The notes below the pieces were generated by a model. That model saw nothing but the letters and a program-made list of their open reading frames with translations, was not told where the DNA came from and ran no database searches. The translations under genes were made by a program, and so were the position numbers. Positions 27,152 through 28,442 of a DNA stretch of 64,000 nucleotides are shown here, piece by piece; positions within the stretch are counted from its first letter, which is position 1; each line of letters begins with the position of its first letter. The stretch spans positions 109,718 to 173,717 of the forward strand of contig JACPLC010000001.1 in NCBI GenBank assembly GCA_016186695.1, written 5' to 3'. The stretch comes from Candidatus Kaiserbacteria bacterium. GTDB taxonomy: Bacteria > Patescibacteriota > Minisyncoccia > Phycocordibacterales > UBA2100.

Positions 27152-27223
27152 GTTGCGGGGGCTGGAATTGCACCAGCGACCTCGAGGTTATGAGCCTCGC
27201 GAGCTACTTCTGCTCCACCCCGC
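27152..27223 (-). tRNA. Initiator-like tRNA-fMet (anticodon CAT), minus strand, with an atypical T-loop
   Basis: Reverse complement reads AGCGGGGTGGAGCAGAAGTAGCTCGCGAGGCTCATAACCTCGAGGTCGCTGGTGCAATTCCAGCCCCCGCAA, which matches bacterial initiator tRNA closely (GCGGGGTGGAGCAG...CTCATAACC...CCCCCGCAAC). The 1:72 pair is an A:A mismatch, as in initiators. The T-loop is TGCAATT with G55, which is unusual. Confidence 0.55.
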
Positions 27224-27263
27224 TCTGTGCACTGTACTACAAAGAAAAGTCGGTAGCAATTTT

Positions 27264-27452
27264 TTAGTGGCCGAGTGCGGTGAGCACGACTTCCGTGAGC
27301 GAAACGGCAACGAATGTTGCAAGCGCGAGGAGGAACAATCTCCAATCGAGCGACGTAATGATCGAACCGAAACCGTAGGCGAGAAATCCAAGTGCGACAA
27401 ACCACAGCACGGAATTAAATGCGAGGATCGTTGTCCAGAAGCGTGTGGACAT
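27264..27452 (-). CDS. Hypothetical small membrane protein (62 aa)
   Basis: Two hydrophobic helices. No similarity recognised. Could be spurious. Confidence 0.25.
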   Translation of the reverse strand: MSTRFWTTILAFNSVLWFVALGFLAYGFGSIITSLDWRLFLLALATFVAVSLTEVVLTALGH

Positions 27453-27515
27453 ACTGCAACATGATTATATCGCATTGTTGAGAGGGAAGGAGTAAACTGA
27501 TATCTTGTCAGAATT

Positions 27516-27589
27516 GTCGGGGTAGCTCAGCTGGTTAGAGCGGACGTTTCATAAGCGTCAGGTCGTGGGATCGTAGCCCACCCCCGACA
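27516..27589 (+). tRNA. tRNA-Met (anticodon CAT), elongator-like
   Basis: Cloverleaf with acceptor GTCGGGG/CCCCGAC, D-arm GCTC...GAGC, anticodon stem GACGT/GCGTC and loop TTCATAA. T-loop ATCGTAG carries an A54:U58 swap, a covariation of the usual T54:A58. Confidence 0.7.
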
Positions 27590-27680
27590 CACAGCGGACA
27601 CACAGCGTGGCGGTTGCGGAAGGCATATGTATCCACGTAAGTGGTTAGTGCCATGTCTTGTCACGTGGTAGTATAGTTTT

Positions 27681-28442
27681 GTGGCTCCAATGTATCGTAA
27701 AGTAAGACGTGATTTTTTCCGCATCTGGTCCGCGGAAATGGCATACGTTCTTGGTTTCTTTGCAGCCGATGGCAATATGATCCGGAACAGGCGAGGCGCG
27801 TATTTCGTCAGCTTTTACTCGAATGACAGGCGGTTGCTCGTCGATATCCGACATGTACTCGACTCCTCACACAGGATTGGAACGAAGAAACATTTTCCTT
27901 CGCGTAGGACCGCATACCAACTTCAAATCGGGAGCAAAGAAATCTTTGAGGATTTGTTGTCATTGGGATTTACTCCAAATAAGAGTACATCACTTCGGCT
28001 GCCGCGTATTCCGAGGTCGCTCGCGAAGCATTTCGTGCGAGGCTACTTTGATGGAGACGGCAATGTGTATTTCAAAAGGCACTTCGCGAAGGATCGGGGT
28101 AAATACCGGTGGATATTTCAAAGCAGGTTTACATCGGGCAGTCGTGTGTTTCTGGAAGATCTCCATACCGTTCTTCGGAGCAACGGAATTCTTGGCGGAT
28201 CGCTCATCAAGAAAGAGCGCGGCCACGATTTGCTATTTAGTCATCATGATAGCGTTGCTTTATTCCGTCTTATGTACAATAATATCGGCGATTGCGTATA
28301 TCTTAGGAGAAAGTACTTGCTATTCCGACACGCAGTCGACTCATTGTATGGGGGCGTAGCTCAGCCCGGTTCAGAGCGTCCGCTTGTCACGCGGAAGGTC
28401 GCGGGTTCAAATCCCGTCGCTCCCGCATCACCGAAAAACTGA
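27681..28442 (+). CDS. Double-motif LAGLIDADG homing endonuclease, free-standing; functional protein probably ends near 28349
   Basis: Two LAGLIDADG motifs, LGFFAADGN and VRGYFDGDGNV, about 100 aa apart. Lower GC (about 47%) than the flanks. From 28350 the frame reads through tRNA-Asp, so the last 30 codons probably translate the tRNA. Confidence 0.75.
   Translation: MAPMYRKVRRDFFRIWSAEMAYVLGFFAADGNMIRNRRGAYFVSFYSNDRRLLVDIRHVLDSSHRIGTKKHFPSRRTAYQLQIGSKEIFEDLLSLGFTPNKSTSLRLPRIPRSLAKHFVRGYFDGDGNVYFKRHFAKDRGKYRWIFQSRFTSGSRVFLEDLHTVLRSNGILGGSLIKKERGHDLLFSHHDSVALFRLMYNNIGDCVYLRRKYLLFRHAVDSLYGGVAQPGSERPLVTRKVAGSNPVAPASPKN
28350..28425 (+). tRNA. tRNA-Asp (anticodon GTC)
   Basis: Acceptor GGGGGCG/CGCTCCC (one G:U pair). 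D-arm GCTC...GAGC. Anticodon stem TCCGC/GCGGA with loop TTGTCAC. T-arm GCGGG TTCAAAT CCCGT. Confidence 0.8.

Follow-up and report, generated by a model that had tools for sequence, protein, structure and literature searches.

Collaborative homing is known from two phage systems, namely F-CphI with the psbA intron of cyanophage S-PM2 (Zeng et al., 2009) and the system of Bonocora and Shub (2009) (PMC3984707), and introns are proposed to have first gained their endonucleases in this way (review PMC3984707). In phage T4, the endonuclease SegB cuts the homologous region of SegB-less relatives, so that its own gene and the tRNA region beside it are inherited preferentially (PMC2330249). In Patescibacteria, self-splicing group I (IA) introns were reported at position 35/36 of tRNA-Asp and tRNA-Asn (Nakagawa et al., 2026; PMC13011429), the tRNA-Asp intron being present in 3 of 95 complete genomes, namely GCA_001029755.1, GCA_023898525.1 and GCA_030583725.1. 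Endonuclease genes were sought there only inside introns of more than 500 bp, and limited mobility was inferred because most of the tRNA introns lacked them. In this work, a stretch of 64,000 nucleotides (nt) from a Candidatus Kaiserbacteria contig (hereafter the window) was analysed, in which an open reading frame (ORF) for a LAGLIDADG homing endonuclease abuts a tRNA-Asp(GTC) gene. No description of such a flanking LAGLIDADG gene was found in the searchable literature, nor in the text and supplementary files of PMC13011429 that were searched. We consider it probable, at roughly 0.7, that the gene encodes a functional free-standing homing endonuclease specialised on the tRNA-Asp(GUC) of Patescibacteria, which works together with an ORF-less intron by collaborative homing.

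The labels L001–L163 denote the loci or contig lineages with which the window was compared. Downstream sequence was available for a protein-selected set of 26 Patescibacteria lineages, the window included, and in all 26 of them tRNA-Asp(GUC) stands directly downstream of the endonuclease ORF. The upstream genes vary among these carriers (ligA, bPH_2, GIY-YIG, tRNA-Met and others), and the distant Fictibacillus homologues (38–40% identity) are without the link to tRNA-Asp. Because the gene abuts tRNA-Asp in 26/26 lineages, the comparative data favour homing aimed at a tRNA gene, which the initial annotation of the locus had offered as one possible origin.

In 12 of the 26 lineages an insert of ~200–250 nt that ends in G interrupts the tRNA-Asp gene between positions 35 and 36, after CUGU, and ARAGORN missed the tRNA in these lineages because of the split. 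The insert matches RF00028 over the full model with 44.8 bits and an expect value (E) of 1.9e-10 (gathering score 50). It lies inside the tRNA and not around the endonuclease gene, and it contains no ORF. An ORF-less intron in the adjacent target gene thus occurs in 12/26 lineages but not in the window itself, whose tRNA-Asp is uninterrupted. The initial annotation had also suspected a degenerate intron around the endonuclease ORF. No intron fold was found at E<=10 in 27000–29000, so this proposal is not supported as worded, but about half of the related loci do have a genuine group I intron within the tRNA-Asp gene next to the ORF. By comparison with the 3/95 complete Patescibacteria genomes of PMC13011429, the proportion of 12/26 is an enrichment with a Fisher p of ~1e-7, computed with 12/24. 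A masked N run (5806–5815) was seen inside the tRNA-Asp intron of the public contig L006, which was therefore left out of the intron comparisons.

The association was also followed in the reverse direction, by scanning metagenome contigs for the exon–intron junction GGTTAGA-N7-CCTGTAGA. After chance matches were removed by requiring the 5' part of the tRNA, 33 distinct intron-bearing tRNA-Asp loci were left, which carry the 3' exon of tRNA-Asp wherever the contig extends far enough. A profile search upstream of these loci found a full-length endonuclease gene in 17, a gene running to the contig edge in 4, degenerate copies or C-terminal stubs in 9, and nothing in 3 (L069, L086 and L139). The endonuclease gene or its remnant thus precedes 30/33 intron-bearing tRNA-Asp genes, and a remnant was found in 0/6 endonuclease-free, intron-less controls. 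Decayed copies are frequent (L015, L033, L038, L067, L078, L102 and L117, in addition to the C-terminal stubs), those of L015 and L033 being real pseudogenes. Loci with and without the intron do not separate in a neighbour-joining tree of the endonuclease but are interleaved. All stages were found, namely the empty site, endonuclease only, endonuclease with intron, decayed endonuclease with intron, and intron only. The association between endonuclease and intron is two-way and strong, and the window represents the endonuclease-only stage.

The features of the window locus are the following.

27516..27590, plus strand: tRNA-Met(CAT), the left edge of the insertion and the ancestral left neighbour of tRNA-Asp (ARAGORN; Rfam, 59.1 bits)
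27593..28349, plus strand: inserted block of leader and endonuclease core, absent from syntenic relatives
27608..28426, plus strand: block common to the window and L001 (leader, endonuclease gene and entire tRNA-Asp allele), ~88% nucleotide identity
27643..27664, plus strand: 22-nt element GGTTAGTGCCATGTCTTGTCAC, a tDNA-Asp mimic from D-loop to anticodon loop (GGTTAG-N9-YTGTCAC)
27648..27677, plus strand: promoter-like site GTGCCA-18-TATAGT from a consensus scan, a consensus match only, just 5' of the start codon and overlapping the mimic
27681..28349, plus strand: endonuclease core of 223 amino acids (aa) (Pfam, AlphaFold2, Foldseek, and the ratio of nonsynonymous to synonymous substitution rates, dN/dS)
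27750-27776, plus strand: LAGLIDADG motif 1, LGFFAADGN (D30)
28035-28067, plus strand: LAGLIDADG motif 2, VRGYFDGDGNV (D126)
28350..28426, plus strand: tRNA-Asp(GTC), intact and intron-less (ARAGORN; Rfam, 67.3 bits)
28350..28442, plus strand: ORF tail of 31 codons read from tRNA-Asp and its trailer, with the stop codon TGA at 28440-28442

The syntenic order around the locus is (ligA)-gatC-gatA, a 227-aa gene, tRNA-Met, a 62-aa gene, tRNA-Met, tRNA-Asp, an HD gene, tRNA-Thr and tRNA-Thr. Five contig lineages (L035, L037, L159/L160, L161 and L163) keep this order without the endonuclease gene, L161 being a complete Kaiserbacteria chromosome. L036 is another syntenic contig without the gene, and L038 holds a decayed relic of it. 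The spacer between tRNA-Met and tRNA-Asp in the empty sites measures 40 nt in L035, 50 nt in L037 and 44 nt in L159/L160. In a blastn comparison with L035 the window is colinear on both sides (~70–76% identity), and 27593-28351 has no counterpart and replaces the 40-nt spacer. Empty-site alleles had been set beforehand as the check on a mobile insertion, and their presence in syntenic relatives bears out that part of the initial annotation.

The endonuclease gene is present in both the window and L001/L002, whose HD gene is 59% identical to that of the window. By comparing the window with L001, the synonymous divergence (dS) was 0.50 for the endonuclease, whereas the HD gene reached ~2.0 and the 62-aa gene was saturated. 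The high identity begins at GTGG(C/A)GGTTGCGGAAG and collapses directly past the 3' end of tRNA-Asp, and the two tRNA-Asp genes are identical at 77/77 positions. Since the endonuclease dS is far below that of the flanks and the high identity stops at the edges of the block, the leader, endonuclease gene and tRNA-Asp allele were exchanged long after the lineages split. To judge from these comparisons, the endonuclease gene is a mobile insertion and the unit 27608..28426 has moved horizontally. On the other hand, the 227-aa gene (26430-27113) and the HD gene (28963-29616) stand in the same order in relatives without the endonuclease, and from the window to L001 they have diverged far more than the endonuclease has. 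Both neighbours are resident genes that did not arrive with it; the suggested co-arrival with an adjacent 'HEPN-like' gene, which is the 227-aa gene, is thereby refuted.

The endonuclease ORF (27681..28442, 253 aa) begins with GTG, an in-frame ATG at 27690 being an alternative start, and leaves a gap of 90 nt to tRNA-Met. Its frame crosses the entire tRNA-Asp gene, as had been noticed in the initial annotation, and the last 31 codons are tRNA or trailer. This is not a peculiarity of the locus, because the ORFs of the family normally end on a TAG of the tRNA. Of 44 intact ORFs, 38 have their stop codon within the tRNA or past it. Among the 24 intact ORFs of the protein-selected set, 11 end on the TAG of U8-A9-G10, 4 on a TAG at position 13 and 1 on a TAG at position 21, while 2 (window and L001) read through the whole tRNA and 6 end 3–64 nt before it. 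The nearest clade to the window and L001 (L009, L003 and L006) has its stop before the tRNA. In an independent set of 20 usable ORFs, the stop is at position 8 in 14 and at position 21 in 6. The window frame misses the TAG at position 8, and the D-loop of its tRNA-Asp, GGTTCAG, removes the TAG at position 21, hence the read-through. It is an extreme form of the overlap seen throughout the family. From what is established on RNase P and tmRNA, cleavage at the 5' end of a tRNA would strip the stop codon from an endonuclease message of this kind. Such a removal presumably limits the expression of the endonuclease.

The mimic is present in two of the three endonuclease clades, at 14 or more of 33 loci compared, where it stands 15–20 nt upstream of the start codon and is followed by a TATAAT-like box. 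This box, 3–7 nt before the start codon, recurs across the endonuclease family. A separate tRNA-Asp promoter in the 3' end of the ORF is not evident in the window, and -10-like boxes are plausible there in AT-rich relatives. The mimic has the general form GG(T/A)TA(G/A)-N9-NTGT(C/T)A(C/T). In 1.88 Mb searched on both strands, this pattern gave 36 matches, and those examined, all but a few, proved to be genuine tRNA-Asp genes or to lie upstream of an endonuclease gene. It is inherited with the endonuclease gene and not with the host, as seen between the window and L001 and across clades. An origin as a relic of the recipient's tRNA 5' half was ruled out: nothing resembles tRNA positions 1–17, the central nine bases have an AT-rich consensus of their own, and the element follows the endonuclease lineage. 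By analogy it might serve as a target mimic or an operator, a role that we regard as doubtful. It spans 35/36, which is a hint that the target may coincide with the intron insertion site.

The D-loop of the window tRNA-Asp is one base longer than the canonical GGTTAG, which is found in every endonuclease-free relative examined. The canonical tRNA-Asp pattern is distributed as follows.

Intron-bearing alleles next to an endonuclease gene: 11 of 12
Endonuclease-free alleles: all examined
Uninterrupted alleles beside an intact endonuclease gene: 4 of 12 (8 of 12 depart from it)

The Fisher p is ~0.01 for each D-loop contrast, in samples that are small and not phylogenetically independent, and the window allele is one with an extra base. 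The contrast fits a target site that is disabled by either the intron or a change of the D-loop. The anticodon stem was tried as the immunity determinant and ruled out, because carrier alleles with and without the intron share the same stems.

We hypothesize that the endonuclease cuts tRNA-Asp alleles without an endonuclease gene, most probably between the D-loop and the anticodon loop, position 35/36 included. When the break is repaired from an allele that bears the endonuclease, the leader, the endonuclease gene and the tRNA allele next to it would be copied in. The ORF-less self-splicing intron at 35/36 would split the target, confer immunity by doing so and hitch-hike with the break (collaborative or trans homing). 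In the window the resident tRNA-Asp may be protected by its longer D-loop instead. The endonuclease gene would be a selfish insertion directly 5' of the tRNA, which in the window has lost its own stop codon. Immunity would come about in this manner, and the gene would presumably regulate itself through the upstream tDNA-Asp mimic. In its fullest form the hypothesis joins the endonuclease and the 35/36 intron into a two-part mobile system, in which the enzyme cuts across the intron site and is restrained both by the mimic acting as an operator and by non-stop mRNA left by RNase P; this version is put forward tentatively, and we would lean slightly against it.

Besides the size of the D-loop samples, several observations weigh against collaborative homing at tRNA-Asp. 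Both the cleavage activity and the cleavage site are ones that we infer from sequence. The correlation between endonuclease distances and intron distances is weak (Mantel r 0.15, p 0.04), so that strict co-transfer is no more than possible. Intact copies in L003, L014, L018 and L023 adjoin an uninterrupted tRNA-Asp with a canonical D-loop, where self-immunity is unexplained. The mimic is absent from one endonuclease clade, and no relative of the endonuclease was found in the viral contigs that were searched for a vector. Moreover, the window copy carries a 30-aa tail encoded by the tRNA, and its 250-aa ATG form is known in the protein collection from one Logan contig only.

Another reading is classical homing at the insertion site, in which the enzyme recognises the junction that it now occupies, made up of the upstream spacer and the first bases of tRNA-Asp, the insertion destroys the site, and the association with the intron is secondary, for instance through hitch-hiking on recombination that the endonuclease stimulates. 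The gene always abuts tRNA position +1, self-immunity would be automatic and would explain the four intact copies beside canonical uninterrupted tRNAs, and the block exchanged between the window and L001 takes in the whole tRNA. However, the empty sites show no conservation upstream of tRNA-Asp, and yet many unrelated upstream contexts were entered. Furthermore, the gene or its relics at 30/33 intron-bearing alleles would be left unexplained, as would the conserved D-loop-to-anticodon mimic upstream of the gene. We therefore regard this explanation as unlikely.

Still less probable is a decaying copy heading to deletion, in which the window gene would have been inactivated by the lost stop codon and by the tail that the tRNA encodes. 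The window and L001 did lose the stop that their nearest clade keeps before the tRNA, the 250-aa form is confined to its single Logan contig, and decayed copies are common in the family. By comparison with the L001 endonuclease, however, the amino acid identity is 90% and dN/dS is 0.10 (dS 0.50, dN 0.05), so that both read-through copies are under strong purifying selection. Every invariant residue of the family is intact, with no frameshift and no internal stop in the window ORF. The residues D30, G31, D126, G127, Q82 and K101, invariant in an alignment of 38 homologues, are all present in the window copy. The window ORF is thus an intact LAGLIDADG endonuclease gene under purifying selection. 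In the endonuclease of L009, an in-frame TGA (3244-3246) was seen at a conserved glycine position (LQIGSK). A pseudogene was considered for L009 and set aside, since this position suggests a genome that reads UGA as Gly (code 25); the family would then reach such lineages.

The protein matches LAGLIDADG_3 (PF14528) in two stretches with 50.9 bits against a cut-off of 22.5 (1.9e-13). More than 2,600 homologues were found, nearly all in metagenomes of Patescibacteria and typically of 225–235 aa; with 50%-identity clusters, an exhaustive search gave 113 representatives at E<=1e-30, and the number rose to 4,000 at E<=1e-10. The AlphaFold2 model (predicted local distance difference test, pLDDT, 93; predicted template modelling score, pTM, 0.90) has two alpha-beta-beta-alpha-beta-beta-alpha domains with helices and strands in the expected order. 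In the Foldseek search the top match was I-Tsp061I (E 3e-11), with template modelling (TM) scores of 0.62–0.68, and the best PDB matches were I-Tsp061I, E-DreI, the bI3 maturase, I-AniI and the I-OnuI group. Among the 50 listed of 127 PDB matches (E<=0.001), all are LAGLIDADG-type enzymes, maturases or intein-associated endonucleases. By sequence, I-Tsp061I is the sole detectable PDB match (E 7e-4). The protein is thus an ordinary member of the LAGLIDADG superfamily. The claim of a free-standing double-motif LAGLIDADG gene holds, with both motifs, the Pfam match and the fold in agreement and no intron nearby, and Pfam shows no intein or host-protein segments either.

LAGLIDADG maturases exist, and bI3 and I-AniI are among the structural matches, so a domesticated host factor was considered, in which case the protein would not be a selfish nuclease but would mature the tRNA-Asp intron or regulate tRNA-Asp by binding DNA. 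The tight linkage to one tRNA gene and the conserved tDNA-like element in the promoter region would agree with it. The gene is, however, patchy among close relatives, with six syntenic lineages lacking it, pseudogenes and stubs are frequent, and both catalytic aspartates are invariant. In half of the carriers there is no intron on which a maturase could act, and the tRNA-Asp intron self-splices in vitro without protein (PMC13011429). A host factor is therefore very improbable. A remnant of a degenerate group I intron or intein is hardly credible: introns or inteins are the usual carriers of bacterial LAGLIDADG genes and the closest solved structure is intron-encoded, but the surroundings of the ORF show no intron fold at E<=10, the tRNAs on either side are complete, the ORF possesses a start and a promoter-like site of its own and is without intein or host-protein segments, and the intron of the relatives lies inside the tRNA, at ~200–250 nt and without an ORF.

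In 27000-29000, Rfam at E<=10 found only the three tRNAs and no group I or II intron, and at the gathering threshold over the whole window only tRNAs and no intron family around the endonuclease ORF. The third of these tRNAs is a tRNA-Met(CAT) on the minus strand at 27152-27224 (ARAGORN, Rfam). The initial annotation had called it initiator-like, and the hallmarks were seen by inspection, namely the 1:72 mismatch (also flagged by Rfam), A11:U24 and the 5' end GCGGGGUGGAGCAG. It keeps 91% identity in endonuclease-free relatives and is therefore not part of the insertion. The initial annotation had also reported a dip in guanine plus cytosine (GC) of about 10 points. The dip is real, with 46.9% in the ORF core against 54.0% in the window (standard deviation 2.9% for windows of the same size; 3rd percentile), but it amounts to ~7 points and is not sharp on the downstream side, since the upstream genes have 54.5% and the downstream HD gene 48.9%. 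The protein collection holds the 250-aa ATG form (27690-28439) as an entry without a name, and the HD neighbour has a named NCBI entry, being 100% identical to a 'Candidatus Kaiserbacteria' protein. The endonuclease coding sequence (CDS) may be uncalled in the public genome record, possibly through its overlap with the tRNA gene.

Other elements were observed around the tRNA genes. A conserved two-hairpin element of ~100 nt, with the core GGGTCGGGGAACGGGAGTTCCCCGTGGAGGAAGGATTGGGAAAACCGTGGGTTTCCCAG, lies at 29955-30060 of the window, just past tRNA-Thr(CGT) (29874-29947). It occurs also at L035 3172-3244, L159/L160 1363-1418 and L014 3177-3250, after tRNA 3' ends, and past it there is a second copy of the last ~16 nt of the tRNA. 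No Rfam family matches it at the gathering threshold. It resembles a miniature insertion by which tRNA 3' ends are targeted or duplicated. Inserts of 150–250 nt bounded by duplicated tRNA 3' ends (e.g., TCCCGTCGGCCGCGC) follow tRNA-Asp and tRNA-Met. They were seen downstream of tRNA-Asp in L009, L011, L013, L014 and L015, and at 2920-3260 and 3740-3990 in L035, and are possibly related to the two-hairpin element or are relics of attachment (att) sites. Small GIY-YIG ORFs (~80–115 aa) recur beside tRNA clusters (L001 4740-5003, L003 3617-3964, and L023 downstream of tRNA-Asp) and may be a second class of nuclease-like genes associated with tRNA genes. A flavin mononucleotide (FMN) riboswitch (72.3 bits, 33437-33598, minus strand) upstream of ribD (30059-31138) and ribBA (31141-32541) is ordinary.

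If the hypothesis of collaborative homing holds, the conclusion of limited mobility in PMC13011429 would be revised for tRNA-Asp, as the endonuclease gene is next door and not inside the intron. Bacterial chromosomes would contain many apparent natural instances of collaborative homing, from the empty site to intron-only, and the rates and order of events could be estimated. The model of how introns acquired endonucleases would become testable by comparison, with all stages of the life cycle kept in metagenomes. The architecture is itself unusual, because the conserved U8-A9-G10 of a tRNA supplies the stop codon of a protein gene, a stop that the gene of the window misses. With the stop codon within the tRNA, the expression of the endonuclease would be linked to tRNA processing. 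Moreover, annotation that forbids an overlap of CDS and tRNA could miss the endonuclease gene. For meganuclease engineering, a LAGLIDADG enzyme that is specific for a tRNA and has a conserved 22-bp target would offer a scaffold ready for use.

I-TevI reportedly represses its own expression via an operator that resembles its homing site (Edgell et al., 2004). The target-like GGTTAG-N9-YTGTCAC, which overlaps the promoter-like region of the endonuclease, may be likened to this arrangement by analogy only, and unlike it the element is missing from one clade of the tRNA-Asp endonuclease family. In common with I-Tsp061I (PDB 2dch, from an archaeal rRNA intron) and the LAGLIDADG enzymes of rRNA insertions in the candidate phyla radiation (CPR) (PMC11270868), the protein has a monomeric two-domain fold of ~200–230 aa. 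The identity with I-Tsp061I is, however, ~19%, and those enzymes are encoded within rRNA introns or insertions, whereas that of the window is free-standing beside a tRNA gene. The introns found here agree with those of PMC13011429 in position (CUGU|...G|CAC), length (~200–250 nt) and RF00028 match, in the 12 endonuclease-selected and the 33 pattern-selected loci, and the window differs in that its tRNA-Asp has no intron. T4 SegB is likewise encoded by a free-standing gene among tRNA genes (PMC2330249), but it is a GIY-YIG enzyme of a phage, and here the gene is LAGLIDADG, chromosomal, bound to a single tRNA species and fused to the tRNA 5' end. The likeness to F-CphI and the phage form of collaborative homing lies in a free-standing endonuclease gene beside a gene with an ORF-less self-splicing intron. 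The differences are that the hosts are chromosomes of Patescibacteria and not phage, that the target is a tRNA gene and not a protein gene, and that the ORF overlaps the target. Furthermore, F-CphI is described with an Endo VII-type motif (PMC6083498), in contrast to LAGLIDADG here, and cutting at the intron insertion site, which belongs to collaborative homing, is for the present enzyme a prediction. The system thus differs from those known in being chromosomal, widespread in one phylum, of the LAGLIDADG type and aimed at a tRNA, which itself supplies the stop codon.

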